From the NCBI RefSeq assembly GCF_051903065.1, contig NZ_CP178438.1: a stretch of 64,000 nucleotides of DNA; one strand, 5' to 3'. The translations under genes and the position numbers were made by a program. Source of the DNA: Escherichia coli. Its GTDB lineage: Bacteria > Pseudomonadota > Gammaproteobacteria > Enterobacterales > Enterobacteriaceae. Positions 2,005 to 27,000 of this stretch are shown piece after piece; position 1 is the first letter of the stretch, and every line of letters begins with the position of its first letter. The notes under the pieces are model-generated. The model ran no database searches. It worked only from the letters and a program-made list of their open reading frames with translations, and had not been told where the DNA came from.

Positions 2005-2760
2005 CTACATATCTGCCAACAACATCCCAGCCATACCATCCAGTCGCTTCTTAACCTTTTCCCAGCCCGGCATAACCTGCCCCATCAGACGGTAAAACTC
2101 CTCGCTGTGGTTGTGCTCAGCCACATGGCATAACTCATGTAGCAAAACATAATCGATACATTCTGAGGATGCCTTAACCAGCCATGGATTCAGGGTCAGA
2201 CAGCCTTTTGCTGAACAGTTGCCCCATTGCGTTTGCATCGCCCGCAGACGTATCGGAGGACGCTCACTGACCCAAAGGGTCTGCGGAATCAGTAAATCAA
2301 GCCTGCGCTGAAAAACATCTCTGGCACGTTCCCGATACCATTCAGCCAGCAAGGCTTTAATCTTTTCTGCCGATTTGTGTCTGACAGTCACTTCCAGACG
2401 CCCACGCAACATTTTCACTCGTTGCGGCACAGTAGCGTCTTCTGTCACTTTCAACTGATATTGCTTACCGAGATAATAATGGCTTTCTCCGCTGACATAC
2501 TGACGCGGAACAATGTGTATCTGTTGCTCCCTGAAATCACGCAGTTGCTGGTATATCCAGCGCCCACGTTTTTTCAGCGCAGACAATACCTCGTGCTCCG
2601 GTGTTTCAGGCGGTACAGAGGCCACAACCCGGCAGTCCGGATAAACCTTAATGAGCACCCTGCCCTTTACGACCTGACGCGGAACACACTGTACGACGAT
2701 GACCTCATCACCATAGACAATGCGTAACGCTTTCATTGATGGCGATTCTTTTTCACTCAT
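2005..2760 (-). CDS. HExxH metal-dependent hydrolase (DUF45/YgjP/SprT-like), last gene of the R-M operon
   Basis: HELCHVAEHNH motif; 4-bp overlap with hsdR stop. Confidence 0.65.
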   Translation of the reverse strand: MSEKESPSMKALRIVYGDEVIVVQCVPRQVVKGRVLIKVYPDCRVVASVPPETPEHEVLSALKKRGRWIYQQLRDFREQQIHIVPRQYVSGESHYYLGKQYQLKVTEDATVPQRVKMLRGRLEVTVRHKSAEKIKALLAEWYRERARDVFQRRLDLLIPQTLWVSERPPIRLRAMQTQWGNCSAKGCLTLNPWLVKASSECIDYVLLHELCHVAEHNHSEEFYRLMGQVMPGWEKVKKRLDGMAGMLLADM

Positions 2761-5700
2761 GATTTCATCAAACCAACGCGCAGTATCTGGATGATGGTTT
2801 CCACAATACGGTTAACCTGATTCATTCCGGCACCAATTTCCCGGCAGGCCGTAAACAGCAGTGGTAGCAGACTTGTCTTAACGACTTTCTCAATGTCCTG
2901 GGGGTTCAGGGAGTTTTCTGCCACCGCTCTAACGATAATGCTGTCCACTTCAAAAGCCAGCTTCGTCCACTTATCCTGCACCTGAACGTCTTTTACCACA
3001 AAAACCTCAGGTAGCTCTTTTTTAAATACACCGTAATACGCCTGAGCATGCTTGTTTACCGCCAGTGCATCCGGGATATCGCTGAGCTTACGGGCTTCAA
3101 CCTGTTCTTCAAACTCACGGAATAAGAGGTACTGCTTAAGTGGATGGTCGAACAGTTTTTCAGCCTCTTCGATTGCCATACGCAGGAGTCTGGAAAAGGC
3201 CTCCTGAGCATACGGATCATCACGCAGCTCCTGCTCAATCATCTTCGTCACACGGGTTTTAATGATGTCGGTTTCATTGCGGGTTTTATTGTTGTCCCAC
3301 TCTTCGGGCTTTTCGCTCTTACCCATTTTACCGACTTCATACACGCCATCCGGTTCACGAACCTCAACGCCGGTGACATGCTTATCCAGCAGTTTTTTCA
3401 CCTGCTCGGCGTAGTCGTCATAATTGACCTGCTCTCCACTGACCTGCATCGCCCACTGGCGCAGGCTGGACATCTGTTTTACGGTTTCTTTATAGAGGTT
3501 TCGGTCTTGTTCCGTAAAGCTCTTGTCGGTGAAGAAGGTGGCGGACTGCAGTGCCACTTTCAGGCATCCGGCAAAGGCCGTTAACGCCTCGAAGAAATCA
3601 TCACGGGTTTTCTGATGGATATCGACCATCTCTCCGTCACGTTCTTCCATTTTAGGCACCAGTACCGCACGTAACTGCTCAGTATCATTTTTGTTTTTGA
3701 CACCAGCAAATATGGCCCACAGCTGGTTATACAGATGCGGCAGGCGCTTGTATTCAGAGCTCATGGCGCTGTACAGCCCGTCAATATCTTTGATGTCGTA
3801 TCCGCCCTGAGTTCGGGAGGCGAGGTCCTGATATTTGCCGATAGTCGTGTCCAGCTCAGCCAGAATACCGCGATAATCAATCAGCAGACCGAACTTTTTT
3901 AGTGGATGCAGTCGGTTCACCCGCGCAATCGCCTGGATAAGGTTGTGGGACTTAAGCGGCTTGTCGATATACAGCACGGTATTCTTCGGCTCATCAAACC
4001 CGGTGAGCAGTTTATCAACGACTATCAGCAATTTGAGCTTCTCATCGGTATCGAAACGACTGATGATATTGCGGGTATACACAGACTCATCCTGCGTGCC
4101 GACGTTATCTTTCCACCATTTCGTCACTTCCGGCAGTTTGCTTTCATCCACCTCAGTATTCCCTTCCCGGGTATCCGGCGGGCTGATAACTACAGCTGAC
4201 TCAAACAACCCGGCTTCATCAAGATACTTTTTATATTTGATGGCGGAAATCTTGCTGTCGCAGGCAAGCTGGCCTTTCAGCCCCTCATCAATATTCTTCG
4301 AGAAGTGCGTGGCGATATCGAGTGCGATCAGACGGATGCGATCATCTGCACTATAAACCTCACCTTTACGGGCATATTTACGCTTAAGGTCGGCTTTTTG
4401 CGCTTCGCTTAACCCATCGGTAATACGATCAAACCAGGCATCTATTGCCCGATCGTTAACCTCAAGGTCGGGAATACGTTCTTCATACAGCAAAGGTGTA
4501 ACGGCTTTATCTTCTACCGCTCGCTGCATGGTATAAGCGTGGACAATCGGTCCGAATTTATTGGTGGTCTTATCTTCTTTTAGCAATGGCGTACCAGTAA
4601 ATGCTACAAAGGCGGCGTTCGGCAGTGCCAGTTTCATTCGCACATGGTTCTCACCACCCTGGCTACGGTGTCCTTCATCAATCAGAACGATGATATCGGG
4701 GCTGGTATTGACGCATTCAGGAAGTTTTGTCGCTGAATTAAATTTCTGGATTAGGGTGAAAATGATGCGTTCTTTACCGGAGCCAATCTGTTTCGCCAGC
4801 ATCTGCCCGGATGTCGCCATTGCATTGGCTTTGTCTTTTTTCCCGGCCAACTCGCCGCCGGATGCAAAGGTACTGCTGAGCTGTTCTTCAAGATCGATAC
4901 GGTCCGTCACCACCACGATACGACACCGCTTCAGGCTGTCATGAAGGATCAGCGCCTTGCTGAGGAACACCATGGTGTACGATTTGCCAGAGCCGGTGGT
5001 ATGCCAGATAACACCACCTTCCCTGCCCCCATCGGGTCTGCGGGTACTGATGCGTTCCAGCAGTCTTTTAATCCCGAACACCTGCTGATAGCGGGCAACA
5101 ATTTTTCCGGTCTTTTTATCAAACAGGGTGAAGAAGCGGGTCATCTCCAGCAGACGTTCCGGCGAAAGCAGACTGATGAGCAGCTTATCCTGCCCGCTGA
5201 CAGCCAGTTCCCCCCCGGCGATTAACTGCTGATACCAGTTGAGATCGCCAACAGGACGATGCTCAAATAACGCATCAATTTGTTCAGTCGATAAAGGATG
5301 GTTGCGCAGGGCATACATCTGCGCATCGGTAATATCCTCTTCGCGCCATGCCGCCCAGAATTTCATTGGCGTATGGCATGTACCGTAGCGCCCGTCATGA
5401 CCGTTAATCGAAAGTAATAACTGGCTGTAGACAAACAGCTGCGGGATTTCATCGTTGAACTGGTTGCGGATACTCTGGGATATCCCCTCGTCAATGGTTG
5501 GCCCTTTCTTGCCATGACCAGCCGGGCTTTTCGCTTCAATAACAGCCAGCGGGATACCATTAACAAAGCAGACAATATCTGGCCTCCGGGTTTCAACACC
5601 ACCTGACCGCAATACCGTAAATTCTTCAGTAAAATGGAACTGGTTATTTTCCGGATGTTCCCAGTCGATCAGCGCAATGGTGGGGTTGACCTTCTTGCCA

Positions 5701-6044
5701 TCGACAAACTCCGTGACGGCGATACCGTAGAGCAGATGGTTATACATCCGCTCATTGGCTTTGAGCAGCCCTTCATTCAGCGCCGGAGAACAGACCTGTG
5801 ATATCAGGTTATCCAGTGCTTTTTCCGATAACTGGCAGGTTTTGCCACCCGCCATAAAGGAACGCTTCGACAGCTCTTCACGCAGAACCGGACGCAGCAC
5901 CACCTCATCCTGTTTATAGCCCCGGTAATCCATAATCTGTTTCGGAGATAAAAACGCCCAGCCGAGGCTGGTCAGTAACGTCAGTGCCGGAATTTTGGCG
6001 CTGTATTCTTCCTGGAATTTTGGCGTGTACGTCTGGTTCATCAT
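2757..6044 (-). CDS. hsdR: Type I restriction enzyme R subunit
   Basis: 1095-aa ORF with helicase motifs (GSGKS Walker A, DEGH box). Confidence 0.9.
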   Translation of the reverse strand: MMNQTYTPKFQEEYSAKIPALTLLTSLGWAFLSPKQIMDYRGYKQDEVVLRPVLREELSKRSFMAGGKTCQLSEKALDNLISQVCSPALNEGLLKANERMYNHLLYGIAVTEFVDGKKVNPTIALIDWEHPENNQFHFTEEFTVLRSGGVETRRPDIVCFVNGIPLAVIEAKSPAGHGKKGPTIDEGISQSIRNQFNDEIPQLFVYSQLLLSINGHDGRYGTCHTPMKFWAAWREEDITDAQMYALRNHPLSTEQIDALFEHRPVGDLNWYQQLIAGGELAVSGQDKLLISLLSPERLLEMTRFFTLFDKKTGKIVARYQQVFGIKRLLERISTRRPDGGREGGVIWHTTGSGKSYTMVFLSKALILHDSLKRCRIVVVTDRIDLEEQLSSTFASGGELAGKKDKANAMATSGQMLAKQIGSGKERIIFTLIQKFNSATKLPECVNTSPDIIVLIDEGHRSQGGENHVRMKLALPNAAFVAFTGTPLLKEDKTTNKFGPIVHAYTMQRAVEDKAVTPLLYEERIPDLEVNDRAIDAWFDRITDGLSEAQKADLKRKYARKGEVYSADDRIRLIALDIATHFSKNIDEGLKGQLACDSKISAIKYKKYLDEAGLFESAVVISPPDTREGNTEVDESKLPEVTKWWKDNVGTQDESVYTRNIISRFDTDEKLKLLIVVDKLLTGFDEPKNTVLYIDKPLKSHNLIQAIARVNRLHPLKKFGLLIDYRGILAELDTTIGKYQDLASRTQGGYDIKDIDGLYSAMSSEYKRLPHLYNQLWAIFAGVKNKNDTEQLRAVLVPKMEERDGEMVDIHQKTRDDFFEALTAFAGCLKVALQSATFFTDKSFTEQDRNLYKETVKQMSSLRQWAMQVSGEQVNYDDYAEQVKKLLDKHVTGVEVREPDGVYEVGKMGKSEKPEEWDNNKTRNETDIIKTRVTKMIEQELRDDPYAQEAFSRLLRMAIEEAEKLFDHPLKQYLLFREFEEQVEARKLSDIPDALAVNKHAQAYYGVFKKELPEVFVVKDVQVQDKWTKLAFEVDSIIVRAVAENSLNPQDIEKVVKTSLLPLLFTACREIGAGMNQVNRIVETIIQILRVGLMKS

Positions 6045-6093
6045 TAATCCTTTTCTTTCTGGCGCTACTCGCTACTGGTCACATGAAGATTCA

Positions 6094-6777
6094 TCAATGC
6101 AGACAGCACCTCTTAAATTTTTTACCGCTGCCACACGGACACGGGTCATTTCGCCCGGGCATGTTTTCTGCCCCCTTCACTGGAACAGGCCGGGATGATG
6201 CCTCTGACATTCTCACTGACAACCAGTACTGATAAAGTGCCAGTGCAGCAGGCTGAATAAGGGAAATACTTTTCTCAAACTGCTCTCCGGTCATTTTCTC
6301 AAGTACAGGAAAATTCTTCTCCACGCCATGAAGAGCGATCACTTCCAGAGAAGGCCGTAACTCACCGGGAAGACCAGACCAGTCATCCAGTGACTTTCCT
6401 TTCATATAACCAAAACACCACTCTTCCACAATGGTATATTTTTCCCCCTTTACCTCACGCTCATTGAAAATCGGTTCAAACTGTTCAGGGGCCTCATACA
6501 GGCAGCCAGCGATATCGTTCATATGCTGAAAACACAGCCCCACAAAACGCGTCATCTCTTTTTCGGTGGTCCAGCGAGGGTGGTAATCACCTCGCCCCCA
6601 GATAGCACTGAGCCAGGTATTAGGGGAAATCGTATTCGGGCCAGAGACAATCGCTGTCAGAAAGCCATCCAGCTCAGAGAAACAGAGCACAGAATCATCA
6701 TTGCCGTATTTCAGCAACACCTCTTCCAGCCAGTCGATTTCCCGGTCAATCAGCGGCCCGCTTTTCGTCAGTTTCAT
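6094..6777 (-). CDS. YecA-like UPF0149 protein with C-terminal SEC-C zinc motif, embedded between hsdS and hsdR
   Basis: 227 aa; C-terminal GRNDPCPCGSGKKFKRCC; start ATG overlaps hsdS stop (ATGA). Confidence 0.8.
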   Translation of the reverse strand: MKLTKSGPLIDREIDWLEEVLLKYGNDDSVLCFSELDGFLTAIVSGPNTISPNTWLSAIWGRGDYHPRWTTEKEMTRFVGLCFQHMNDIAGCLYEAPEQFEPIFNEREVKGEKYTIVEEWCFGYMKGKSLDDWSGLPGELRPSLEVIALHGVEKNFPVLEKMTGEQFEKSISLIQPAALALYQYWLSVRMSEASSRPVPVKGAENMPGRNDPCPCGSGKKFKRCCLH

Positions 6778-8012
6778 TCGGCAACCGCCTCATCGACCTT
6801 AACACGACGTTTGCCAGTCAGTAGCTGTTGCATCAGGGCTTTTTTCTCATCTCTCAGGCAGGCGAGTTTTTTCTCCAGCGTGGAGATTTCGGCATCGGCG
6901 ACGGACAGGACGGCGGCGATTTTTTGTTGTTCTCTTATACTGGGTAAGTCTAGTTCAAACTCTTTAACCATTCCGGCGTTTAGGTTGGACTGTGTACCTT
7001 GCTGGCCTTGTAGTTTTATTTTTTCTTTTAATGATGTAAGATAGAAATATAAAAACTCATAATTTAAACAATCTTTTGGTCTAATACCCAAGATTGCCTG
7101 CGAAGATGTTAAATTTACAGCAGCAATGCTGCATTCACCTATAGAAGCATACATAGCATAAAGAACCGAGTTTTTTGGATATATTCTTGCGGATGAACTG
7201 TTCAATCCTAATTCAGTCAGATATTTTTCAGTTGTAGCAATCCACTTTCCATTAGATGTCATATCAGAAATAGATACCCATGGGATATTCCCGCCATAAT
7301 ACTCTTCAACCGTTGATTTCGGAGTACCTCCACTGTTCATATCGGCTATCGCACCCAGTTTTACTCTCTTCCACTCCCCACTAAACCTCACCCCATTCTC
7401 ATCCAGCAAGCGTTTCTTCCCGGTAAGTAATTGCTGCATCAGGGCTTTTTTCTGCTGCTGACTATTGGCGAGCAGCTTTTCCGTCACTGAAATCGCGTTA
7501 TCCCAGGTTGACAAGATTTTGGCTATTTTCTTTTGTTCCGCCAGTGGGGGGAGTAATACAGGAAAACCGCAAACATCATCACGTGTAATATTAGGGTCTT
7601 TACGACTACTTGCCGCAAATTTCTTCCATAATTTTACATTCCCGTTTAAGTAATTCAGGATATATGCTGGTTCTGCTTTATCACGATCGAGTATAAGACC
7701 GGATAATGCTTGGTTTATTGCTGCCGGTATAGTGAGAAGTCCAGTTCTTCCGATCTGGTTAAAGCCTCCATACATCGCTACTAAAACAGTACCAACAGGA
7801 AATACAGAGCAAGATGTTTCTAAAAGGGCTGTGTCAGTAATTTTCTCATCAGTTGAGATAATTTCACCGTTATTTAGGTCTAATGTCTTTACCCATGGAG
7901 TACCAGCAGTAGAAAAATAACGCTCTCCCTCAGCCCTCAGCGGAGTAGATCCAGATTTAATTTTTGCTATGTCCGATAATTTGACATGTCTCCAGCCAGG
8001 TTTGAGCTTCAT
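6774..8012 (-). CDS. hsdS: Type I R-M specificity subunit
   Basis: Two target-recognition domains with repeated conserved spacer motif KKALMQQLLTGK(K/R)R. Confidence 0.85.
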   Translation of the reverse strand: MKLKPGWRHVKLSDIAKIKSGSTPLRAEGERYFSTAGTPWVKTLDLNNGEIISTDEKITDTALLETSCSVFPVGTVLVAMYGGFNQIGRTGLLTIPAAINQALSGLILDRDKAEPAYILNYLNGNVKLWKKFAASSRKDPNITRDDVCGFPVLLPPLAEQKKIAKILSTWDNAISVTEKLLANSQQQKKALMQQLLTGKKRLLDENGVRFSGEWKRVKLGAIADMNSGGTPKSTVEEYYGGNIPWVSISDMTSNGKWIATTEKYLTELGLNSSSARIYPKNSVLYAMYASIGECSIAAVNLTSSQAILGIRPKDCLNYEFLYFYLTSLKEKIKLQGQQGTQSNLNAGMVKEFELDLPSIREQQKIAAVLSVADAEISTLEKKLACLRDEKKALMQQLLTGKRRVKVDEAVAE

Positions 8013-9565
8013 AAGCTATCCTCTTGCATACTGAAGTTTTCTCTTTCACCATAACCCAACTCCTTCAGATAACCCGCCATCTCTGTTTCGAGTTTTGACA
8101 GTTCCACTTTCAATTGCTCACGTTCGGCACGCACAGCCAGCAAGTCAATCTCGTCTTCTTCCTCAAAGGTATCGACATAGCGCGGAATATTGAGGTTGTA
8201 ATCGTTGTCCTGAATTTCCTTCAGGCTGGCGAGATAGGCGTATTTCTCGACGTTATCGCCATCACGGTAGGTCTTGACGATTTTCTTAATGTTTTCTTCG
8301 CTAAGCTGGTTCTGGTTTTTACCTGCCTTGAATTCACGGCTGGCATCGATAAACAGCACCTTATCATCAACTTTCTGCTTTTTGAAAATCAGAATCGCAG
8401 CCGGAATCCCCGTACCGTAGAACAGTTTTTCCGGCAGACCAATTACCGCATCCAGCAAATTTTCGTCGATCAGTTTCTGGCGAATTTTACCTTCGCTGGA
8501 GCCACGGAAAAGCACACCGTGTGGCACAACTACGCCCATACGGCCAGTTCCCGGTTTCAGGGTTTCGATCATATGCGAGATAAAAGCGTAATCTCCTTTA
8601 GTCTTCGGCGGTACACCGCGACGAAAACGGCCAAACTTATCGTTCTCAGCCTCGTCATGGCCCCACTTATCCAGGCTGAACGGTGGGTTAGCGGTCACGA
8701 TATCAAACAGCATCAGGTCGCCATTTTTATCGAGCAGTTTCGGGTTACGAATGGTATCGCCCCACTCGATTTTATGGTTGTCTTCGCCGTGCAGGAACAT
8801 GTTCATTTTCGCCAGCGACCACGTGGAGCCAATCGCTTCCTGACCAAACAACGCATAATTACGGCTGTTATGTCCGGAGACAATTTTACGTCCGCACTTC
8901 ATCAATAACGAACCAGAGCCGCAGGCCGGATCGCAGATGGTATCACCCGGTTGCGGATCAAGCAGTTCAGCAATCAGGTCTGAAACTTCTGGTGGGGTAT
9001 AGAATTCCCCGGCTTTCTGCCCACCGCTGGCGGCAAAGTTTTTGATCAGATATTCGTAGGCATTACCGATAACGTCCAGCGTACCTACACGGCTTGGCTT
9101 CAGGTTGAGATCTTCACCGGCGAAGTCTTCCAGCAACTGACGCAGGATGGTGTTCTTCTGTTTTTCTTCACCCAAGCGGTCAGTGTTAAACGAAATATCC
9201 TGGAACACGCTTTTCCCGGCATCTTTCAGTTTGGTTCCGTTGGCTTCTTCGATTGCATGCAGAGCCTGATCGATACGCTCACCGTTACCCGGCTCATGGC
9301 GGCGTTCGTACAGCGCATAAAAGCTGGCACTTTTTGGCAGTACAAAACGCTCGTTGGCCATCATCGCTTCAATCAGTTCCGGCGCATCGCCATACTGTTC
9401 TTTGTATTCGTCATAGTGATCCTGCCAGACATCTGAAATGTACTTGAGGAACAGCATGGTAAGGATAAAGTCTTTATAGGTATCAGCACTGATGGTGCCA
9501 CGGAACGTATCACACGCGGCCCACAGGGCTTTGTTGATCGTGTCCTGACTGATTTTGTCGTTCAT
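8009..9565 (-). CDS. hsdM: Type I R-M N6-adenine DNA methyltransferase
   Basis: 518 aa; NPPF catalytic motif; AdoMet-binding DPACGSG; 4-bp overlap with hsdS. Confidence 0.9.
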   Translation of the reverse strand: MNDKISQDTINKALWAACDTFRGTISADTYKDFILTMLFLKYISDVWQDHYDEYKEQYGDAPELIEAMMANERFVLPKSASFYALYERRHEPGNGERIDQALHAIEEANGTKLKDAGKSVFQDISFNTDRLGEEKQKNTILRQLLEDFAGEDLNLKPSRVGTLDVIGNAYEYLIKNFAASGGQKAGEFYTPPEVSDLIAELLDPQPGDTICDPACGSGSLLMKCGRKIVSGHNSRNYALFGQEAIGSTWSLAKMNMFLHGEDNHKIEWGDTIRNPKLLDKNGDLMLFDIVTANPPFSLDKWGHDEAENDKFGRFRRGVPPKTKGDYAFISHMIETLKPGTGRMGVVVPHGVLFRGSSEGKIRQKLIDENLLDAVIGLPEKLFYGTGIPAAILIFKKQKVDDKVLFIDASREFKAGKNQNQLSEENIKKIVKTYRDGDNVEKYAYLASLKEIQDNDYNLNIPRYVDTFEEEDEIDLLAVRAEREQLKVELSKLETEMAGYLKELGYGERENFSMQEDSL

Positions 9566-12884: not shown

Positions 12885-14021
12885 ATGCCTATTCTGGATC
12901 TGCGTTTCAGCAACAAATCACTTCACCAACTTCTACATCCCCTCACGGGTTGTCAGGAATACCGTGATATTCACTGCCAAAACCTGCGTGCTCTGGTGTA
13001 TCCCAATCGGATCACGCTGGCCTTTCGTGCCACTATAAACAATCAGCGTATATATGAAACCCTGGGTCAGTTCCCTCAGCTCTGCGTTGAGGATGCCCGT
13101 CAGCATGTGATGAAACTGCTTGCTGATAAAAATCGTCTTGCGGTTCAGTCCCGTCGATTCACTGTGGAACAGGCCATCAATGACCTGTGGCTACCGGATT
13201 TGCAGTTGTATAAAAAGAGTCCTCAGTCAGAGTTGTCAAAACTCAACCTCTACGTTCGCCCGTTCTGGGGCAAGCGGCAACTTCGCGACATCACGGCAGG
13301 AGAACTAGAACAATATGCTGCTGGCTTACGGGAAAAATTACGTCCGTCAACAGTAAACCGTATCCTCGCAATATTGTCCAAAATATGCTCTCTGGCAGTA
13401 CGTGCTGGATGGATCACGCATTCCCCGATGTCACATGTCCGCTATCTGAAAGAAAATAACATTCGCTATCGCACACTGTCAGCGACAGAAATCCCGCGCT
13501 TTATTGACGCGGCAACAGCGCTGCAAACACCGGCAGCTGATTCTATATTGCTTGCTCTTTATACGGGGATGCGTATTGGTGAGGTATGTACCCTGAAATG
13601 GGAGTACTGGCACCCGGATATGCATCAACTCATACTGCCTGATACAAAGTCCGGACACCCTTTCACCTGCCCACTTGCACCTCCAGCCATTGCAGTTGTC
13701 CAGTGCCAGCAGGACCTGATGCTCAGCAAAACTTACATTTTTCCACAACTAACCGACAATGTCCGCCCTCTGGCATATCCGCGTGCAACCTTTGCCCGTA
13801 TTTGTCGGGATGCCAACATTGATAACCTGCGGATGCATGACCTGCGCCGTACCTTTGCCACCCGGGTACTACAGGCGACCGGGGATATTGCAATCGCTTC
13901 CCATCTGCTAAATCACCATTCACTCACGGCGACCCGTCGCTACGCTTTTCACAATGCAGCGACATCACACGCAGTGGTTTCTCAGGTCATAGAAAGTTAT
14001 GACACAAAAATGAACCTATGA
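12885..14021 (+). CDS. Tyrosine recombinase / phage-type integrase
   Basis: C-terminal catalytic motifs HDLRRTFAT and LNHHSLTATRRY; AGGAG RBS. Confidence 0.8.
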   Translation: MPILDLRFSNKSLHQLLHPLTGCQEYRDIHCQNLRALVYPNRITLAFRATINNQRIYETLGQFPQLCVEDARQHVMKLLADKNRLAVQSRRFTVEQAINDLWLPDLQLYKKSPQSELSKLNLYVRPFWGKRQLRDITAGELEQYAAGLREKLRPSTVNRILAILSKICSLAVRAGWITHSPMSHVRYLKENNIRYRTLSATEIPRFIDAATALQTPAADSILLALYTGMRIGEVCTLKWEYWHPDMHQLILPDTKSGHPFTCPLAPPAIAVVQCQQDLMLSKTYIFPQLTDNVRPLAYPRATFARICRDANIDNLRMHDLRRTFATRVLQATGDIAIASHLLNHHSLTATRRYAFHNAATSHAVVSQVIESYDTKMNL

Positions 14022-14163: not shown

Positions 14164-14364
14164 ATGTATTTAACCATTAAGCAGTTTGCAGAAAGATTTA
14201 ATCTTTCCGCATCCACGGTTGCGTCAGATATATCGCGCAACCCAGGAAAACTCCCGCCCTTCATCAGAATTGGGCGGGCTATACGATTCTCTCTTGATGA
14301 TATTGTTGAGTGGGAAAATGCACATCGTCAAAACAAACTTAAAGGTGATATAAATGGTTACTAA
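14164..14364 (+). CDS. AlpA/Xis-like small HTH DNA-binding protein (putative excisionase)
   Basis: 66 aa, position downstream of integrase, GGAGG RBS. Confidence 0.6.
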   Translation: MYLTIKQFAERFNLSASTVASDISRNPGKLPPFIRIGRAIRFSLDDIVEWENAHRQNKLKGDINGY

Positions 14365-14410
14365 GAACACAGCAAATAATGCTAATAATGCACTGAACAT
14401 TCTTCCTGAA

Positions 14411-14419
14411 GCAGCAAAC
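14411..14419. repeat. 9-bp target-site duplication gcagcaaac (left copy; right copy at 15477..15485)
   Basis: Identical 9-mers directly flank the IS903-like element. Confidence 0.85.
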
Positions 14420-15476
14420 GGCTTTGTTGAATAAATCGAACTTTTGCTGAGTTGAAGGATCAGATCACGTATCTTCCCGACAACGCAGACCGTTCCGTGG
14501 CAAAGCAAAAGTTCAAAATCACCAACTGGCCCACCTACAATAAAGCCCTCATCAACCGTGGCTCCATAACTTTCTGGCTGGATGATGAAGCTATTCAGGC
14601 CTGGTATGAGTCAGCAACACCTTCTTCACGAGGCAGACCTCAGCGCTATTCTGACCTTGCCATCACGACTGTGCTGGTCATTAAACGCGTATTCAGGCTG
14701 ACCCTGCGCGCTGCGCAGGGCTTTATTGATTCCATTTTTTCTCTGATGAACGTTCCGCTACGCTGCCCGGATTACAGCTGTGTCAGCAGGCGGGCAAAGT
14801 CGGTTAATGTCAGTTTCAAAACGCCCACCCGGGGTGAAATCGCACACCTGGTAATTGATTCCACCGGGCTGAAGGTCTTCGGTGAAGGCGAGTGGAAAGT
14901 CAAAAAGCATGGCCAGGAACGCCGCCGTATCTGGCGTAAGCTGCATCTCGCCGTTGACAGTAAAACACATGAAATCATCTGCGCTGACCTGTCGCTGAAC
15001 AACGTTACGGACTCAGAGGCCTTCCCCGGGTTAATCCGGCAAACCCACCGGAAAATCAGGTCAGCCGCCGCCGATGGCGCTTACGATACCCGGCTATGTC
15101 ACGATGAACTGCGGCGTAAGAAAATCAGCGCGCTTATCCCTCCCCGAAAAGGTGCGGGTTACTGGCCCGGTGAATATGCAGACCGTAACCGTGCAGTGGC
15201 TAATCAGCGAATGACCGGGAGTAATGCGCGGTGGAAATGGACAACAGATTACAACCGTCGCTCGATAGCGGAAACGGCGATGTACCGGGTAAAACAGCTG
15301 TTCGGGGGTTCACTGACACTGCGTGACTACGATGGTCAGGTTGCAGAGGCTATGGCCCTGGTACGAGCGCTGAACAAAATGACGAAAGCAGGTATGCCTG
15401 AAAGCGTGCGTATTGCCTGAAAACACAACCCGCTACGGGGGAGACTTACCCGAAATCTGATTTATTCAACAAAGCC
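14420..15476 (+). mobile_element. IS903-like element (IS5 family), 1057 bp with terminal inverted repeats
   Basis: Terminal IRs ggctttgttgaataaatcg / cagatttattcaacaaagcc; transposase ORF; 9-bp flanking duplications. Confidence 0.85.
14452..15420 (+). CDS. IS5-family (IS903 group) DDE transposase
   Basis: ORF inside the IS; N-terminus QKFKITNWPTYNKALINRGSITFWLD; true start may be internal. Confidence 0.85.
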   Translation: MKDQITYLPDNADRSVAKQKFKITNWPTYNKALINRGSITFWLDDEAIQAWYESATPSSRGRPQRYSDLAITTVLVIKRVFRLTLRAAQGFIDSIFSLMNVPLRCPDYSCVSRRAKSVNVSFKTPTRGEIAHLVIDSTGLKVFGEGEWKVKKHGQERRRIWRKLHLAVDSKTHEIICADLSLNNVTDSEAFPGLIRQTHRKIRSAAADGAYDTRLCHDELRRKKISALIPPRKGAGYWPGEYADRNRAVANQRMTGSNARWKWTTDYNRRSIAETAMYRVKQLFGGSLTLRDYDGQVAEAMALVRALNKMTKAGMPESVRIA

Positions 15477-16065
15477 GCAGCAAACACAGCTGTAGACAAC
15501 GATGAAAAATATCTGTCCTTTGCATTAGTTCTCGCTATCACGATTATGGACAACTTAGTAAAGCTCATCGGCACAGATGGCTTCGTACTTTATACCTACA
15601 CCCTGCAGGACACGGCTACTGCTCGTGCTGTTTTTAATGAATTAGCCAGGCGTCTCAAAAATTTCAATCGTCAGGAGGAGGTCTACACCACCGATTCCCT
15701 CACCTTTCGAATGAAATACATTTACGGTGTTACCCTGTTCGAACATGATAGTAAATCTATCCTTAACCTCTTTGATAAGAAGGGTTATCCGGTATTGAGT
15801 GAATCAGGAGAACCCGGTTCTCTTGATGATATGTATCTTGACATTCAAGCCCGATTACATGGCGGCTACGCCTCAAAAAAGTTTCTTCATTTACATGAAC
15901 ATTGTCTGTTATCTGCACACGTTACCCCGTCTGTGGAAAAGACGCAACGCGGTATCCTGATTAAAGTAGGCAGGAAACTCGTTTCCTTTATCCATGTAGA
16001 TGATGAATCACACAAAACCGATATTTTCAAATCTGTAGTAAATGTTATTAAATCTTGATTCTTTA

Positions 16066-16093
16066 TGCCGGGACACAGCTCCCGGCATTTTTT
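16066..16093 (+). terminator. Hairpin plus T-tract just upstream of the piPolB start
   Basis: tgccggga-cacagc-tcccggca followed by tttttt. Confidence 0.5.
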
Positions 16094-16104
16094 CGGAGTT
16101 AACT

Positions 16105-18705
16105 ATGAGCAATAATTTGCAGGACATCCTCGCTGCCGCCTCGGGGTATCAGTCCGTGACTTCAGAGCCAGCGTTCAATCGTAAAAGACCTAAAACGCTT
16201 GATGATTATCCTGTGATACCACCTGCATCAAAAAAAGTATCTGTTATTTCAAGTGACCTGACACTCCATATCGGTTTTGATACCGAATATGTTTTCAACC
16301 CTGAAACACGACAGAATGATATTCTGTCATATCAGAGTTATGTTGTCTTACCCGATAATACAGGTATATCGAACATTATCTATCCACCTGACTCACAGAA
16401 AAAATCCCGGCTGTCTTTTAAGGAATTTCTCTGTCAAACGATTACACCGCTTCTTGAAACGGGTGTGATTACAAAATGGCCCGGTATTATTAATATATAT
16501 GCGCATTTCATTCGTGCGGATATCGCCTCCTTTGCCAATTTCTGGTCAGACTACAAAATTCTTCTGAAAGGAATACGCGGTACTGTCAGCAGCTTCAAAA
16601 ATCGTTACGGTATCGATTTTGATGAACAGCAGGAACGTCGCGTAAAGACTGAACAGATAATGTTTGACAAACGAACTTCCCCTCCGCGTTGCAGTAACGT
16701 AGCTTTCATCGATACACTGCTTATCACTCCCGGGGGTATGGGTCTGGCTGAATGTGGTGAATTACTGGGTCTTCCCAAACTCACCATTCCTGCACCTTAT
16801 TCCATAACCAATATGCGTGAATATCTTCTGGGCGACAGAGCAGGGTTTGAAGCCTATGCTCTGCGGGATGCCGAGATTGCGGTTCGTTATGCTTTACAGG
16901 TTCGCAATTTTTGCGCCCGGGAGCTGATGATTGATCGTGTCCCCGCCACCATCGGGGCGATGGCAGTTTCACGGTTCACCAAAACACTTAAAGAAAACAA
17001 TATGTCTCCTGAAGTCTGCCTTGGGACACACATTAAAACCCGTGAACTCTGGCTCACGGAGAAACAGGCATTCCGGACGATTAAAAACCCCGCCAGTGTT
17101 CCTTCAAGAGAGTTGTTTGAAACGTTCCCGATCAACTGTTACCACGGCGGACGCAATGAGTGTTTTATGATGGGGGTTACACCGTCTGATCACTGGTATG
17201 ACTACGATCTGGCTGGAGCGTATACCACCGGGCTATTAGATATCCTCACACCCGATTACGGGAACATCCGCCTCAGTAAAAATCCGGACGATTACTGTGG
17301 GCATGTAATGGGATTTGCGCTTGTCACATTTCGGTTCCCGGAATCAGTTCCCTATCCCAGCCTGCCGGTTCGGACCGATCAATATGGGTTATTCTTTCCA
17401 TTAAGTGGCGAATCATGGGCAACGGCACCTGAAATCGAACTTGCTCTGTCGCTCGGGGCAGAGATGACGATCCATAATGGGATCATCGTCCCCTGGATCT
17501 GTGACACCTCCCCACATAACAGCGAATCAACATCGGTGTTTCTTCCCTTTGTTCAACAGGTCCGTGAGAACCGTAATCGCCATATTAAAGGTTCTCTGGA
17601 GGAGAAATTCTGGAAAGAAATTGGCAACTCGCTTTATGGCAAACTTGCTCAGGGCCTTCGCGCCAAAACCGCCTTTGATACTGCCCGTGGATTAAACAGA
17701 TCCCTCCCACCATCATCGGTTACTCAGCCATTCTTTGCTGCGCATGTGACGGGATTTATCCGCGCCGTTGTCGGGGAACTCATGAATGCTTTGCCTTCTG
17801 ATTCATCGGTTGTCAGCGTCACAACCGATGGTTTTTTGACAAATTGCCCACTTGACAAGATAAACATGAGCGGTCCACTGTCTTCCCGCTTCCAGTCGCT
17901 GTGCGATATTGTTGATCCGGGTTCATCAATGTTGACATGTAAGCATGAGGTCAGCCAGCTTATCGCCATGAAAACCCGGGGGCAGTTAACCTATAGAGCT
18001 ATTCAGGGAAAACCTGTTGTTCATGCCAGGGCTGGCGTCAAACCTCCTGCCGATATTCCACGCAGTGACTATAACGACTATATGGTAGATCTTTACCTTA
18101 ATCGTTTACCCGGTCAGACGTTATCCCGAAGTACGTTGATATCAACGCGTGAGATGTGGCTCTCGGAAAGCGATCTGGTATCCCGGGAACAGGATATCCG
18201 TCTTAATCTGGAATTCGATTTCAAACGCCAGCCCGTACAGCCCGCCATGAATGAAGGGCATTTACTGATGTTTTCCCGCCCGTGGGATAATATGGAAGAG
18301 GCTCTGCAGCAACGCTCTCTTTTCGACGACTGGCGGCAAACGCATACACTGAAGACCCTGGCTGACTGGGATGACTGGTGTGATTTTCTCTATTGCCGGA
18401 CGGTGTTTTCTGATATGAAACTAAAAGTCGGAAGCAAACGTAGTGATGATATTTTAGTCAGACTATTTCTCCGGGCGCTGACTCAGTGCCAATGGGGGCT
18501 GATGCTGAAAGATAAAAAAAGTTATTCCTGTAAAGAGGTTGCTGAATGGCTGACGTCAGAAGGCTATTCAGTAACGGTGACTGATGTAAAAAATGCGGTA
18601 AGAGCAAAAATACCCCAAATGAAATTTAGTTCTGTAACACCGCGAATGAAGTCACTGATGGATATCATAGCCCGTAAATATCCGACATTCTGTCTTCCAG
18701 TCTGA
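16105..18705 (+). CDS. Family-B DNA polymerase of the primer-independent (piPolB) type
   Basis: Exo I FDTEY, Exo III YALRD, motif B NSLYGKL, motif C VTTDG, and KTRG in place of KxY; start taken at MSNNLQ after GGAG. Confidence 0.8.
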   Translation: MSNNLQDILAAASGYQSVTSEPAFNRKRPKTLDDYPVIPPASKKVSVISSDLTLHIGFDTEYVFNPETRQNDILSYQSYVVLPDNTGISNIIYPPDSQKKSRLSFKEFLCQTITPLLETGVITKWPGIINIYAHFIRADIASFANFWSDYKILLKGIRGTVSSFKNRYGIDFDEQQERRVKTEQIMFDKRTSPPRCSNVAFIDTLLITPGGMGLAECGELLGLPKLTIPAPYSITNMREYLLGDRAGFEAYALRDAEIAVRYALQVRNFCARELMIDRVPATIGAMAVSRFTKTLKENNMSPEVCLGTHIKTRELWLTEKQAFRTIKNPASVPSRELFETFPINCYHGGRNECFMMGVTPSDHWYDYDLAGAYTTGLLDILTPDYGNIRLSKNPDDYCGHVMGFALVTFRFPESVPYPSLPVRTDQYGLFFPLSGESWATAPEIELALSLGAEMTIHNGIIVPWICDTSPHNSESTSVFLPFVQQVRENRNRHIKGSLEEKFWKEIGNSLYGKLAQGLRAKTAFDTARGLNRSLPPSSVTQPFFAAHVTGFIRAVVGELMNALPSDSSVVSVTTDGFLTNCPLDKINMSGPLSSRFQSLCDIVDPGSSMLTCKHEVSQLIAMKTRGQLTYRAIQGKPVVHARAGVKPPADIPRSDYNDYMVDLYLNRLPGQTLSRSTLISTREMWLSESDLVSREQDIRLNLEFDFKRQPVQPAMNEGHLLMFSRPWDNMEEALQQRSLFDDWRQTHTLKTLADWDDWCDFLYCRTVFSDMKLKVGSKRSDDILVRLFLRALTQCQWGLMLKDKKSYSCKEVAEWLTSEGYSVTVTDVKNAVRAKIPQMKFSSVTPRMKSLMDIIARKYPTFCLPV

Positions 18706-18753
18706 TAACCGTTAAATCTCCCCCAACTCCTTTAACAGAAGTTGGGGGCTTAA

Positions 18754-19080
18754 TCACAGGCAATCGGCATCAAAACAGTGAAATAACTGCCGCGCGTCAG
18801 GATGGCCATTTACATGATAGATCCGCATGGCATGACAGGTGATACTCTGGAGATTAGCCGCCAGCCTTTTCCCCATATTCACCAGTATGCCGTGTGGTAT
18901 TTTACTGCTTGTACTGTTTACTGTCAGAGTAAAACAATTTGTTTCAACGCTGACCTCAATAAAATCATTTCCAAATAATGTACCGACAACCTGCCTGATT
19001 GTTTCTTCATAATCTGTCAGATCAATGACATCACGCCATCTCGCATTTACGAGTTGATACTTTCTGATATGTAAATACAT
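18754..19080 (-). CDS. Hypothetical protein (108 aa)
   Basis: ORF with AAAGGTGG RBS. Confidence 0.45.
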   Translation of the reverse strand: MYLHIRKYQLVNARWRDVIDLTDYEETIRQVVGTLFGNDFIEVSVETNCFTLTVNSTSSKIPHGILVNMGKRLAANLQSITCHAMRIYHVNGHPDARQLFHCFDADCL

Positions 19081-19459: not shown

Positions 19460-20362
19460 ATGGGTAAGCACGATAAACTTGGATATCGACTCGGATTGAT
19501 ATTAACTCGCCTGAACAATGGTGAGTCACTAGCCGTCCGGGAGTTATCTGAGGAATTTAACGTTTGCGAAAAAACTATCCGTCGCGATCTTACTCAGCGC
19601 CTGTCCTATCTTAATCTGATTCGACAAAATGGTCGCTATCGCCTGTCTGACGGTGTTCTCGGTCAACGCAGCAATGCTGATTTACGTCATTTCACGCGCA
19701 TCCTGGGTATTGAAGGGCTGTTCCCTCGCTGGGATGACAGACTACTGAGTATTTTGTTAGGTAACACGAAAAATAACCCGTTTCTGATAAAACAACGTCC
19801 ATACGAAAACTGCGGATCATTCATGTCAATTCTGAATGTATTATCCGATGCCATCCTGTCACAGAAGAAAGTAAATTTTAATTACAAAGATAAAGAGTTT
19901 CGGGCTGTTGAGCCATACAGACTGGTTAATGACAACGGATTGTGGTATCTCGCTGCCGCCCATGACAGTACATTAAAAAGCTTTGTTATCTCATCTGTCA
20001 AAGACGTTTGCATGAGTAATATCTCTTTCAGGATAATCCCCGAAATTAATGAAAAAATAGAAAAGACAGATGGTATCTGGTATAGCGAAGACCTTATCGA
20101 AGTTCTCATTTCAGTTTCCGCACATGTTGCTCCGTGGTTTACCCACCGTCATCTATTGCCAGGACAGGAAATAATTCATACTTCCCGGTCTGGCGATTTA
20201 CTGGTGATATCACGTGTAACACACACAGATCAGATAATGCCTTTAATGAAATACTGGATACCGGATGTCGAAGTAATACAACCGGCCTCAATCCGTCAAC
20301 AACTTGCTGAAGATATACAATCCGCACTGAAACGTTACACCCAGCCAAGTAACGCCCCGTAA
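19460..20362 (+). CDS. WYL-domain transcriptional regulator (HTH-WYL-WCX; YafY/BrxR/CapW-like)
   Basis: N-terminal HTH ([21 protein letters not shown]), central GLWYL signature. Confidence 0.75.
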
Positions 20363-21648: not shown

Positions 21649-22070
21649 CCTCGCGCATACAGCCGGGCAGTGACGTCATCGTCTGCGCGGAAATGGACGA
21701 ACAGTGGGGCTATGTCGGGGCTAAATCGCGCCAGCGCTGGCTGTTTTACGCGTATGACAGGCTCCGGAAGACGGTTGTTGCGCACGTATTCGGTGAACGC
21801 ACTATGGCGACGCTGGGGCGTCTTATGAGCCTGCTGTCACCCTTTGACGTGGTGATATGGATGACGGATGGCTGGCCGCTGTATGAATCCCGCCTGAAGG
21901 GAAAGCTGCACGTAATCAGCAAGCGATATACGCAGCGAATTGAGCGGCATAACCTGAATCTGAGGCAGCACCTGGCACGGCTGGGACGGAAGTCGCTGTC
22001 GTTCTCAAAATCGGTGGAGCTGCATGACAAAGTCATCGGGCATTATCTGAACATAAAACACTATCAATAA
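21567..22070 (+). CDS. insB: IS1 InsB reading frame (expressed as InsAB' by -1 frameshift)
   Basis: 167-aa ORF overlapping insA. Confidence 0.8.
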
Positions 22071-22629: not shown

Positions 22630-23064
22630 TCAACAACTTTCCACAGTTACCGTTACCCGGTAAATCCCCATAGAGAGATACTCCATAAAATTACGCTCCC
22701 ACAGGGACCAGAGTTCATTCCTCTCTGCTGCCAGTGAAATATCCCCAATCAGATAATGGAATACATAATTCCCCGACCAGCAAAAATCAATTTCTTTTTC
22801 CAGCTCAGGGTAGACACGCCCCATATAACTAAAATCTGTGACATAATCAAAATACCATTCATTATTCTTACGGATAAACCGTATTTCAACGGGATGAAAG
22901 CCCCCGGATTCTGCACTGTAGTCCGGATCACGGAAATTAATAACCACTGCCTCAGTTATTTTTTGTAAAACCTGATTTGCCAGAAGAGTAGTAATATGCT
23001 GCTGAAATTCTTTAGTAACAGGCAGAGTTAATCCTGCCTGTTTTAAGGCATATTGGGTTTGCAT
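22630..23064 (-). CDS. Hypothetical protein, possibly DUF2787-like
   Basis: 144 aa; NFRDPDYSAESGGFHPVEI recalled as DUF2787-like; RBS present. Confidence 0.45.
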   Translation of the reverse strand: MQTQYALKQAGLTLPVTKEFQQHITTLLANQVLQKITEAVVINFRDPDYSAESGGFHPVEIRFIRKNNEWYFDYVTDFSYMGRVYPELEKEIDFCWSGNYVFHYLIGDISLAAERNELWSLWERNFMEYLSMGIYRVTVTVESC

Positions 23065-24436: not shown

Positions 24437-25636
24437 TCACATCTGCTTCGTAGCCGCAGTATTCAGAAGCAGGTCAGTCACTCCCTGCCCTGTCTGACGC
24501 ATACGTTCCGGTGTTAATTTCGCGTAACGTTCTGTACTCTGAATACTGGCATGCGCCAGTTGGGCTTTAACGTCATACAGGCTGAATTGACCACTCGAAA
24601 CCAGTAAAGAGGCAACAGAATGACGTGTGGTGTGAAAACAGACTTCATTCTTGTCTATACCGCACTGTGCCAGTATTTTTTCATATGCCCATCGGGGTTC
24701 CGATATCGGTTTTCCATTATCCTTAATGGCGAACAGATACGGATTACTGCCAACTCGTGGGATAGCATCAATAATCGATAATGCGGCATCGCTTAGATAT
24801 ACCGTCCGACTGCGACCATTTTTTGTATAAGGAATGAACAGAGTACGATTGGCCCGGTCGATATGTTCATGCCTGACATTAAGCATTTCTGATTTGCGTG
24901 TACCGGTTAACAACAACATGGCTATCAATCCCCCGGCAGCTTTGTTGGGATATTGGGTAGCAGCGTCAAGAATGCGCCTGATCTCATCAGCATCAAAAAA
25001 GCGCGTCCGCTGATTATTCTCTTTCAGTAAAGGGATCTTATCGGCTTCATTCTTTTCCAGCACATCCTGTCGCAACGCATAACGCCCCATCGTTTTCAGA
25101 ATAGCAAGGGCTCTGTTACAGGTAGACGGCGCATATTGCTGCCCGTGAATACGCCCCTCCAGCATGTCAAACAGCACCTGTTGTATCTCTCTGGCCCTGA
25201 GATCGCAGTAACGTATCTTTCCCAGACGAGGTTCAATGTATTGCGTGAAACGCTGAACATCCTTATCCCAGGACTTTTTATGGCGCTTGATGAACGGAAC
25301 ATAGGTCTGGTGAAAAAACTCACTAAGCGTTGGCATCGCACGATAATTATCGCGCTCTGCCTTGGGGTCATTTCCAAGTGCAATCGCCTCCTTATGACGG
25401 CGAGCTATCTGGCGAGCTGTCCCCACATCAATTTCAGGGAATCTGCCAATACTGATACTTTTTTTGGTACCGTGGAATGTGTAGCGCAGGAGGAAACGTT
25501 TGTTACCCGTTCGACCTGAGAGACATTTGAGGCCAATAACTTCGGTATCAGATACCTCAAGCTCTGTAGATCGGGTATCTGTGTTTGCCGGAAGGGCTTT
25601 GATGGATGAATTGGTGAATCGGAAGGATTTTTGCAT
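24437..25636 (-). CDS. P4-type tyrosine integrase with N-terminal arm-binding domain
   Basis: R...HxxR...Y catalytic residues (HTTRHSVAS, TERYAKL); start at MQKSF after GAGGA. Confidence 0.85.
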   Translation of the reverse strand: MQKSFRFTNSSIKALPANTDTRSTELEVSDTEVIGLKCLSGRTGNKRFLLRYTFHGTKKSISIGRFPEIDVGTARQIARRHKEAIALGNDPKAERDNYRAMPTLSEFFHQTYVPFIKRHKKSWDKDVQRFTQYIEPRLGKIRYCDLRAREIQQVLFDMLEGRIHGQQYAPSTCNRALAILKTMGRYALRQDVLEKNEADKIPLLKENNQRTRFFDADEIRRILDAATQYPNKAAGGLIAMLLLTGTRKSEMLNVRHEHIDRANRTLFIPYTKNGRSRTVYLSDAALSIIDAIPRVGSNPYLFAIKDNGKPISEPRWAYEKILAQCGIDKNEVCFHTTRHSVASLLVSSGQFSLYDVKAQLAHASIQSTERYAKLTPERMRQTGQGVTDLLLNTAATKQM

Positions 25637-25716: not shown

Positions 25717-26457
25717 ATGGAAAAGCTATTAGACGCGTACAAACGGATATTGCAGGAAGTTAACGCCCAGTCATTTAACCTGAATGAGGATAAATACTCA
25801 GGCGTATTTTTACCCGTACCCTTTGAAGAATACTGGCATTCACCGGTAAAAATCATGCTGGTTGGACGTGAAACCGCAGGCTGGAATACGCTGAATGGTA
25901 AGAATACGATATCACGGGTGTTGGGACTTATACCTGACGTTACCATCGGGCAAGTGGTTGAAGAAGCTGTAGATCGTTACAGGAAACATCTTCCGGTACA
26001 AAATTATGGCACCGCCAACCTCAAATCACGTAGCCGCTTCACGCAATATCATTTCAGGCTGGCCCGGGAGCTTAATATCCCTCCTCAGGCTATCGTGTAT
26101 GCCAATCTACTGGCGTGGGATTACGACGGACTGACCCCTCTCAATCGCCCTCAAAATGAAGTGCAGGAAGTTATATTAGCCTCGCTGAAGCTGCTGGCGG
26201 TACAAATTAAACACCTTGAGCCTGATTTCATGATCTTTGCATCCGGAGCCCGGAGAACAGACTACATCATTAAACAGGTGCTTACTGAGCTGGGCGGTTA
26301 TGAGACTTCTTCAGTCATTCCGGGGAAGCTGTGGGAGTTCAAAACAGGTAATACAATCTGTTTCAGAATTGCCCATCCAAGGGCTATGCGCGGACACCAG
26401 AAGTACAGAGATGAGGTGATTGCACGAATTAAGCAACTTTGTACTAAGGGCGGCTAG
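25717..26457 (+). CDS. Hypothetical protein; weak resemblance to uracil-DNA glycosylase superfamily motifs
   Basis: 246-aa ORF; VGRETAGW and AHPRAM segments loosely resemble UDG motifs A/B. Confidence 0.4.
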   Translation: MEKLLDAYKRILQEVNAQSFNLNEDKYSGVFLPVPFEEYWHSPVKIMLVGRETAGWNTLNGKNTISRVLGLIPDVTIGQVVEEAVDRYRKHLPVQNYGTANLKSRSRFTQYHFRLARELNIPPQAIVYANLLAWDYDGLTPLNRPQNEVQEVILASLKLLAVQIKHLEPDFMIFASGARRTDYIIKQVLTELGGYETSSVIPGKLWEFKTGNTICFRIAHPRAMRGHQKYRDEVIARIKQLCTKGG

Positions 26458-26633
26458 AGCATTACAACTTGCTCAGCAGGCCCCCCTTCCCGGAAGAGTA
26501 CCGGAAAACAGGCAAAGCGGCCTGGTTCTCTATGCTGGAGGCGACACGTTCAATTCGGCATTGCCAGGCTGTAGATTGCAGCTCATTGCACCCCGTGCGC
26601 ACAGGATATGCACAGGGCGTGAATTGCATGCAC

Positions 26634-26657
26634 AAAAAAACCACCCGAAGGTGGTTT
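26634..26657 (-). terminator. Rho-independent terminator of the glyW-cysT-leuZ operon
   Basis: ccacccgaaggtgg hairpin followed by T-run on minus strand. Confidence 0.6.
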
Positions 26658-26698
26658 CACGACACTGCTTATTGCTTTGATTATTCTGATGTTTCCCA

Positions 26699-26785
26699 TG
26701 GTACCCGGAGCGGGACTTGAACCCGCACAGCGCGAACGCCGAGGGATTTTAAATCCCTTGTGTCTACCGATTCCACCATCCGGGC
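26699..26785 (-). tRNA. leuZ: tRNA-Leu (anticodon UAA)
   Basis: 87-nt match to recalled E. coli leuZ, CCA end encoded. Confidence 0.9.
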
Positions 26786-26797
26786 TCGGGAAGAAAG

Positions 26798-26871
26798 TGG
26801 AGGCGCGTTCCGGAGTCGAACCGGACTAGACGGATTTGCAATCCGCTACATAACCGCTTTGTTAACGCGCC
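26798..26871 (-). tRNA. cysT: tRNA-Cys (GCA)
   Basis: 74-nt match to recalled cysT. Confidence 0.9.
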
Positions 26872-26924
26872 AAATTCTTCAGGCCTTTCAGCCAGACATC
26901 CGCTGACGCCGATGTCTTTTAAAC

Positions 26925-27000
<76 letters not shown>

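Follow-up and report, generated by a model that had tools for sequence, protein, structure and literature searches.

The DNA analysed here, a 64,000-nucleotide stretch of Escherichia coli chromosome (contig NZ_CP178438.1 of RefSeq assembly GCF_051903065.1; hereafter the window), carries the right-hand part of an integrated element of the pipolin type, and within it an open reading frame (ORF) at 16105-18705 that we regard, with high confidence, as the intact piPolB gene of an E. coli pipolin, that is, the gene for a family B DNA polymerase (PolB) of the primer-independent kind. Coordinates are those of the window, and features lie on the plus strand unless stated otherwise. Upstream of the gene and in the same direction are found an integrase gene, an excisionase gene, a small conserved gene that is probably split by a copy of the insertion sequence (IS) IS903B, and a terminator-like hairpin; a WYL regulator, further pipolin genes and an attachment (att) repeat at a tRNA-Leu gene follow downstream.

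The piPolB coding sequence (CDS) comprises 866 codons plus the stop and is the same CDS that RefSeq annotates as 'DNA polymerase type-B family protein'; across RefSeq the gene is also called 'DNA polymerase' or 'hypothetical protein'. The longest mechanical ORF at this position runs from 16042 to 18705 and would encode 887 amino acids, with an internal ATG at 16105 that yields the 866-residue protein. This internal ATG is the start used by RefSeq in a near-identical genome, and a Shine-Dalgarno (SD) motif, GGAG (16095-16098), invariant in four E. coli alleles, lies 6 nt 5' of it. A start at 16042 was rejected, given that it overlaps the upstream ORF, reads through the hairpin and has no SD; it would also shift the published residue numbering of piPolB by 21. 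The 887-residue database entries P0013, P0017, P0020, P0066 and P0098 begin at this upstream ATG, which is probably a start-codon mis-annotation.

A preliminary description of the locus had listed exonuclease and polymerase motifs in an apparently intact frame. Each of these was located in the 866-residue translation, in the order given, and Exo II and motif A, which had not been listed, are present as well. Conservation was scored in an alignment of 67 full-length relatives with 30-48% identity to the window protein; in a full scan by HMMER, which covered 1.84 billion cluster representatives, 2080 relatives were detected among 50%-identity cluster representatives. Exo I, FDTEY (16276-16290, residues 58-62), supplies D59 and E61, both found in 66 of the 67 relatives; Exo II, AHFIRADIASF (16501-16533), supplies D139, a position occupied by D in 60 relatives and by E in six; and Exo III, YALRD (16855-16869, residues 251-255), supplies Y251 and D255, each present in 66. 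Motif A, DYDLAGAY (17200-17223), contains the catalytic D368, conserved in all 67. Motif B, KEIGNSLYGKL (17614-17646), includes NSLYGKL at residues 508-514 (17626-17646), with K504 and G512 in 67/67 relatives and N508 in 66/67. Motif C takes the piPolB form SVTTDG (17815-17832, residues 571-576), within which VTTDG spans residues 572-576 (17818-17832) and D575 is catalytic; T574, D575 and G576 occur in every relative. In place of KxY, the protein has KH-X8-KTRG (17941-17982; K613, H614, K623, T624, R625 and G626), which includes AMKTRGQL at residues 621-628 (17965-17988), and here K613 is found in 67/67 relatives, R625 in 66/67, and K or R at position 623 in 65/67. Because the key residues are invariant or nearly so across the family, these motif matches are not attributable to chance. 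Loss of the catalytic aspartates of motifs A and C, which had been named in advance as the observation that would overturn the assignment, is not seen: D368 and D575 are present and family-invariant. For motif C this holds for the second aspartate, while the first is replaced by threonine (T573, shared by 61/67 relatives), yet the published enzyme with the same replacement is active.

That enzyme is the piPolB of the pipolin in E. coli 3-373-03_S1_C2 (KDU42669), characterised by Redrejo-Rodriguez et al. (Cell Rep 2017; PMC5695915), who mutated D59/E61 in the exonuclease site, D368 in the polymerase site, K613 and H614 of the KH pair, and K623 and R625 of KTRG. The window protein holds D, E, D, K, H, K and R at these seven residues, under identical numbers, supporting the earlier interpretation of the ORF as piPolB and identifying it as the E. 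coli orthologue of the characterised enzyme. It also displays both family signatures defined in that study, SxTTDG replacing YxDTDS and KH-X8-KTRG replacing KxY. In the published enzyme, D59A/E61A abolishes exonuclease activity and D368A is polymerase-dead (PMC5695915). The same work described, from experiments in vitro, a PolB of phi29-like architecture with a proofreading 3'-5' exonuclease coordinated with polymerisation, which polymerises with strand displacement, bypasses abasic and other non-bulky lesions, and performs K613-dependent de novo DNA primer synthesis on unprimed single-stranded DNA with no strong sequence requirement. Starting a DNA chain without a primer is unique among PolBs and depends on KH-X8-KTRG (K613, K623, R625), a motif implicated by mutagenesis in both de novo priming and translesion synthesis (PMC5695915).

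Structure prediction, proposed in the preliminary description as a check, was run and gave a phi29-type PolB fold with the catalytic residues in place. The AlphaFold2 model, built with the 67-relative alignment, has a mean predicted local distance difference test score (pLDDT) of 89.8 and a predicted template modelling score (pTM) of 0.88, and its low-confidence stretches are limited to residues 1-45 and 166-180. When the model was compared with the PDB by Foldseek, the first eight matches were phi29 DNA polymerase chains (E ~3e-15), with template modelling (TM) scores of 0.63-0.65 normalised on phi29, and archaeal and eukaryotic PolBs ranked next. The comparison aligned 489 of the 571 phi29 residues, an overall count that makes it improbable that the TPR1 and TPR2 insertions are missing. 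The window protein has the phi29-like architecture, closer to protein-primed PolB (pPolB) than to RNA-primed PolB. It was by fold comparison only, and not by sequence or profile, that phi29 was reached, and a PHROGs scan gave weak DNA-polymerase matches and nothing stronger.

With phi29 DNA polymerase as the closest solved structure, and with weak matches to Pfam DNA_pol_B_2 (organellar and viral) and to PHROG polymerases, the protein might be taken for a protein-primed PolB of the phi29, PRD1 or Bam35 type, belonging to a prophage or to a casposon or polinton-like element. We consider this explanation effectively refuted and attach next to no probability to it. KxY and DTD are absent, which argues directly against a protein-primed enzyme; where such an enzyme has the canonical KxY and YxDTDS, the window protein has KTRG and SVTTDG, and its key residues carry the same numbers as in the characterised piPolB. 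In addition, the element has direct repeats of tRNA att type and tyrosine recombinases instead of terminal inverted repeats, and its RefSeq annotation includes neither virion genes nor Cas1.

Of the 5426 complete E. coli genomes, 295 carry the gene, chromosomal in every case, and in 277 of these 295 carriers the copies are at least 99% identical. Compared with the alleles of enterotoxigenic E. coli (ETEC) H10407 and of strain 214-4, the window allele shows 15 synonymous and 8-11 non-synonymous differences, so that other E. coli piPolB proteins differ from it by 8-11 residues, none of them in a motif. The resulting ratios of non-synonymous to synonymous substitution rates (dN/dS), 0.16-0.22, are based on small numbers (23-37 substitutions), and these small counts point to a gene under purifying selection. 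Since none of the catalytic and priming residues is missing and selection appears to be maintaining the sequence, the window copy would be expected to have the same activities as the characterised orthologue, namely de novo synthesis, strand displacement and translesion synthesis.

Several observations nevertheless weigh against reading the ORF as a functional piPolB, to which the small counts behind the dN/dS values just given also belong. Pfam gives the protein a single, sub-threshold match (DNA_pol_B_2, E 0.014), profile scans with NCBIfam and PADLOC gave no match for the polymerase, and searches of the PDB by sequence and by family profile returned no polymerase, from which it follows that the PDB copy searched holds no solved piPolB structure. 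Percent identity to KDU42669 is deduced from residue numbering and signatures; the activities of this copy are extrapolated from the orthologue; the in vivo role of piPolB is likewise a matter of deduction; and the hairpin and IS903B could mean that this strain expresses piPolB poorly or not at all. We nonetheless consider the piPolB call trustworthy despite near-silent Pfam, NCBIfam and PADLOC results and the frequent RefSeq label of 'hypothetical protein'. This piPolB is already known, and nothing about it departs from published descriptions. piPolB and the E. coli pipolins were described in 2017, with surveys following in 2020 and 2024, and whole-genome amplification already makes use of the enzyme.

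The hairpin and T-tract noted earlier directly upstream of the gene proved to be real. This intrinsic-terminator-like structure (16065-16094) is located in the gap that separates the upstream ORF, with its stop at 16058, from the start of piPolB, and consists of a 9-bp stem at 16065-16088 with a 6-nt loop, followed by T6. Its fold energy is -20.3 kcal/mol (z = -5.2), and none of 200 shuffled sequences folds as well. A scan of 1-30000 with Rfam returned three tRNAs only, indicating that the hairpin belongs to no known RNA family. The stem ends 16 nt before the piPolB ATG, a distance that leaves no room for a separate promoter, and a scan for the sigma-70 consensus between hairpin and ATG found no promoter-like site. 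These two circumstances suggest that piPolB would be expressed from read-through and that its expression is probably kept low. In the single-sequence minimum-energy fold, 16055-16062 also pairs with 16095-16102 to form an outer 8-bp helix with G-U pairs; this helix joins the upstream stop region to the SD GGAG and could bring about SD occlusion or translational coupling.

The structure is a native, conserved feature of pipolins, unrelated to IS903B. Across four E. coli alleles, both arms of the stem and the T-tract are kept, and variation in the loop takes the form of 3-4 nt indels and substitutions. Another pipolin, with a piPolB of 50% identity, has a different GC-rich hairpin followed by T9, which ends 11 nt before the ATG. 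The small ORF upstream of piPolB in that pipolin is not homologous to the 212-aa gene upstream of piPolB in E. coli pipolins (orf212), so what is conserved is the position of the hairpin and not the gene. We surveyed ten loci, the window included, with piPolB at 30-50% identity, and in eight of the ten a distance of 16-42 nt separates the stem of a terminator-like hairpin from the called start that follows it; in one the hairpin lies about 90 nt upstream, and one has none. The recurrent hairpins (window 16065-16094; locus L007, 3958-3989; loci L009, L010, L011, L012, L013 and L014) have no mutual sequence similarity. Against a same-strand background of 0.04 per 110 nt in these loci, the nominal P is 3e-10, a value that overstates the case because the background was computed on whole loci, including coding sequence. 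Terminators or promoters at piPolB are not mentioned in PMC5695915, in Flament-Simon et al. 2020 (PMC7385651) or in Mateo-Caceres and Redrejo-Rodriguez 2024 (PMC11551731).

The IS903-like element that had been placed about 600 bp upstream is a complete IS903B of 1057 bp (14420-15476), with perfect 18-bp inverted repeats and a transposase ORF at 14452-15420, and 628 bp separate its right end from the piPolB ATG. That description held as to kind and distance, but the element is not merely nearby: it most likely sits inside the upstream gene. A 9-bp target duplication, GCAGCAAAC, flanks it at 14411-14419 and 15477-15485. Pipolins free of the IS annotate a 639-bp CDS (212 aa) in front of piPolB, the start of which corresponds to window position 14354. 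There the gene overlaps the excisionase stop by 11 nt and has an AGGTG Shine-Dalgarno motif, and once IS903B is removed in silico its frame is open; the assignment of this start, which is probable, is based on annotation by the Prokaryotic Genome Annotation Pipeline (PGAP), on the SD and on conservation of the frame in three alleles. The conserved orphan gene of 212 aa that immediately precedes piPolB has thus probably been disrupted by IS903B after codon 22: the first 22 codons (14354-14419) are cut off, and the rest (15486-16058) retains an ORF of 170 aa from an internal ATG at 15546 that has no SD.

A flank-joined query from which IS903B had been removed matches uninterrupted in 276 of 283 genomes, and the IS903B junction was found in two of the 5426 complete E. 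coli genomes, 23CRST027 and 23CRST031, which argues that the insertion is recent and lineage-specific. Each of these two genomes has about 20 IS903B-related matches, and their piPolB genes are 100% identical. Both strains could be used as naturally occurring mutants of the core gene that precedes piPolB.

The insertion and the hairpin together raise the alternative that piPolB here is an intact but silent passenger, cut off by IS903B from the unit of integrase, excisionase and orf212, blocked by a terminator and heading to decay. It could draw on the position of IS903B inside a conserved upstream gene 628 bp before the ATG, on the strong terminator-like hairpin 16 nt before the ATG with no promoter-like site after it, and on other E. 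coli pipolins in which piPolB is truncated (RM13516; PMC7385651). We nevertheless judge it improbable. The CDS is without defect and its motif residues are the same as in two other E. coli alleles; the insertion is recent (2/5426 genomes), with piPolB 100% identical between the two carriers; the IS903B transposase is read in the same direction as piPolB, and read-through from it could replace the lost transcription; and the hairpin is also present in IS-free pipolins and is by itself no sign of silencing. A case of evident decay was observed in O145:H28 strain RM13516 (L005, 2364-3541), where an IS3-family element cuts piPolB short after some 93 codons and part of the excisionase region is lost; the same truncation is found in two other O145-related records, and truncated forms of piPolB have been reported (PMC7385651).

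The genes around piPolB identify the element as a pipolin, a kind of mobile element that integrates into the host chromosome. Gammaproteobacterial pipolins are described as carrying piPolB, an IntP2 integrase with an excisionase, a WYL protein, a DUF2787 protein and an IntSXT integrase by the att site, as integrating at tRNA-Leu and as bearing defence cargo (PMC7385651, PMC11551731). The first 35,706 nt of the window are 99.994% identical to strain 23CRST027, two single-base indels apart. In a near-identical complete genome the pipolin measures about 37.5 kb, with its right-hand 26.7 kb falling inside the window, and its insertion site is the 3' end of leuZ, a tRNA-Leu gene. The attR direct repeat (131 bp, 26624-26754) overlaps the 3' part of tRNA-Leu(taa) (26699-26785, minus strand), which belongs to a group of tRNA Leu-taa, Cys and Gly genes (26699-27000, minus strand) followed by pgsA and uvrC. 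A repeat search within the window found no attL; the partner of attR, 133 bp and 96% identical, is found beside yecA in the near-identical genome, some 10.9 kb before the window begins. piPolB is thus flanked by att-like direct repeats, and a tRNA-Leu gene overlaps with one of these.

The core gene set, comprising an IntSXT-type integrase near att, IntP2 with excisionase, WYL, DUF2787 and orphan genes, is present as well. A tyrosine recombinase of the IntP2 pipolin integrase type (12885-14021; role in PMC11551731) adjoins the gene for an excisionase or AlpA-like helix-turn-helix (HTH) protein (14164-14364; TIGR01764, E 3.5e-5). Downstream of piPolB and convergent with it is the gene for a 108-aa orphan protein (18754-19080, minus strand) without a family match in profile scans, and an identical protein, WP_000280683.1, adjoins piPolB in H10407 and 214-4. 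The core genes for an HTH-WYL regulator (19460-20362; PADLOC WYL, E 7.5e-22; PMC11551731) and a DUF2787 protein (22630-23064, minus strand; named from RefSeq of the near-identical genome; PMC11551731) follow, and a site-specific integrase adjoining att (24437-25636, minus strand) is, by its position, a putative IntSXT-type enzyme. Position and annotation together point to the subfamilies given here for both integrases. A DUF726 protein gene and an IS1 are also found between the att repeats. To the left, the cargo includes a type I restriction-modification (R-M) system on the minus strand (2757-9565), with hsdR at 2757-6044, a YecA/YgfB-like gene at 6094-6777, hsdS at 6774-8012 and hsdM at 8009-9565, and also two DUF262 genes; hhe lies outside the window.

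Some further observations concern the neighbourhood. Two accessory genes of the R-M cargo are unusual in a type I system: the YecA/YgfB-family gene, placed between hsdR and hsdS, and a gene for an M48 metallopeptidase (2005-2760) that overlaps the end of hsdR. The 48 nt that separate piPolB from the 108-aa ORF contain a 9-bp GC-rich hairpin, CCCCCAACT...AGTTGGGGG at 18721-18749, which may be a shared terminator of the convergent genes, though no T-run follows it on the plus strand. The near-identical genome has three att copies, one of them internal (L002, 19714-19846 and 21437-22158; window, 26033-26754), where a 722-bp segment ending in att is duplicated beside IS1A and encloses a fragment of about 2 kb with a truncated restriction endonuclease gene; the duplication may have been left behind by a second element or have arisen through an IS1-mediated rearrangement, and three att copies have already been described for some E. 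coli pipolins (PMC7385651). Over the 35.7 kb shared with NZ_AP045789.1, the differences are an extra base at 15024, in the IS903B transposase, and one at 21815, in IS1. RefSeq labels both transposases of that record 'frameshifted', and the IS903B ORF is open in the window, which suggests that the indels are sequencing errors in the record or real inactivating indels.

Based on this anatomy, piPolB would be the last gene of a same-strand string of integrase, excisionase, orf212 and piPolB, expressed by read-through of the conserved terminator at a low or inducible level, and IS903B would in this lineage have split orf212 and separated piPolB from the integrase and excisionase genes. The polymerase might then replicate the excised circular pipolin, or help to restart or tolerate damaged DNA. 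That piPolB replicates the excised circle is what we infer, as the literature does. A different role, one in which the enzyme benefits the host by helping it to tolerate DNA damage, or acts against phages as part of a defence island, and does not serve to replicate the element, is possible but in our view unlikely. Wild-type piPolB, unlike D368A, improved survival after mitomycin C and ultraviolet (UV) treatment when over-expressed (PMC5695915), pipolins have been described as defence islands (PMC11551731), and the neighbours here include a WYL regulator, a type I R-M system and DUF262 cargo. The survival data, however, were obtained by over-expression in a heterologous strain; piPolB belongs to the conserved core and not to the exchangeable cargo (PMC11551731), and it matches no PADLOC defence model.

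Three modest leads emerge in the position of the terminator, the core gene split by IS903B, and a C-terminal domain that is uncharacterised. This conserved, all-helical domain (residues 728-866, 18286-18702) extends beyond the phi29-like core, has no structural relative in the PDB and is not mentioned in PMC5695915, PMC7385651 or PMC11551731. We tentatively propose, as a combined idea that we hold to be doubtful, that the hairpin, found 10-42 nt before the start, is a conserved expression gate and that residues 728-866 form an undescribed functional module. If this is true, an attenuator or antitermination point could keep a potentially dangerous primer-independent polymerase near-silent as long as the element is not induced. 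The conserved position of the terminator bears on when piPolB is expressed in vivo.

With phi29 DNA polymerase (PDB 1XHX, 2EX3) the window protein shares 11-13% identity, a relationship invisible to sequence or profile search. It differs in having KTRG and TTD where phi29 has KxY and DTD, in its N-terminal 50 residues, which are modelled poorly (pLDDT about 40-54), and in an extra C-terminal helical domain of about 140 aa beyond the phi29-like core. Whereas phi29 polymerase is protein-primed, the published piPolB orthologue has no terminal protein and initiates without any primer. At the level of the element, the window pipolin shares with published gammaproteobacterial pipolins the tRNA-Leu/att site, the core and the defence cargo (type I R-M, DUF262, Hhe), and it differs from them in no essential respect; it carries IS903B and IS1, and ISs near IntP2 have already been noted (PMC11551731). 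The closest comparison is with the piPolB of 3-373-03_S1_C2, which comes from the same host species and the same type of element, integrated at tRNA-Leu as E. coli pipolins in general are reported to be, and has the same residue numbers and signatures; a distinguishing feature of the window copy is IS903B, most likely inside the gene directly upstream.

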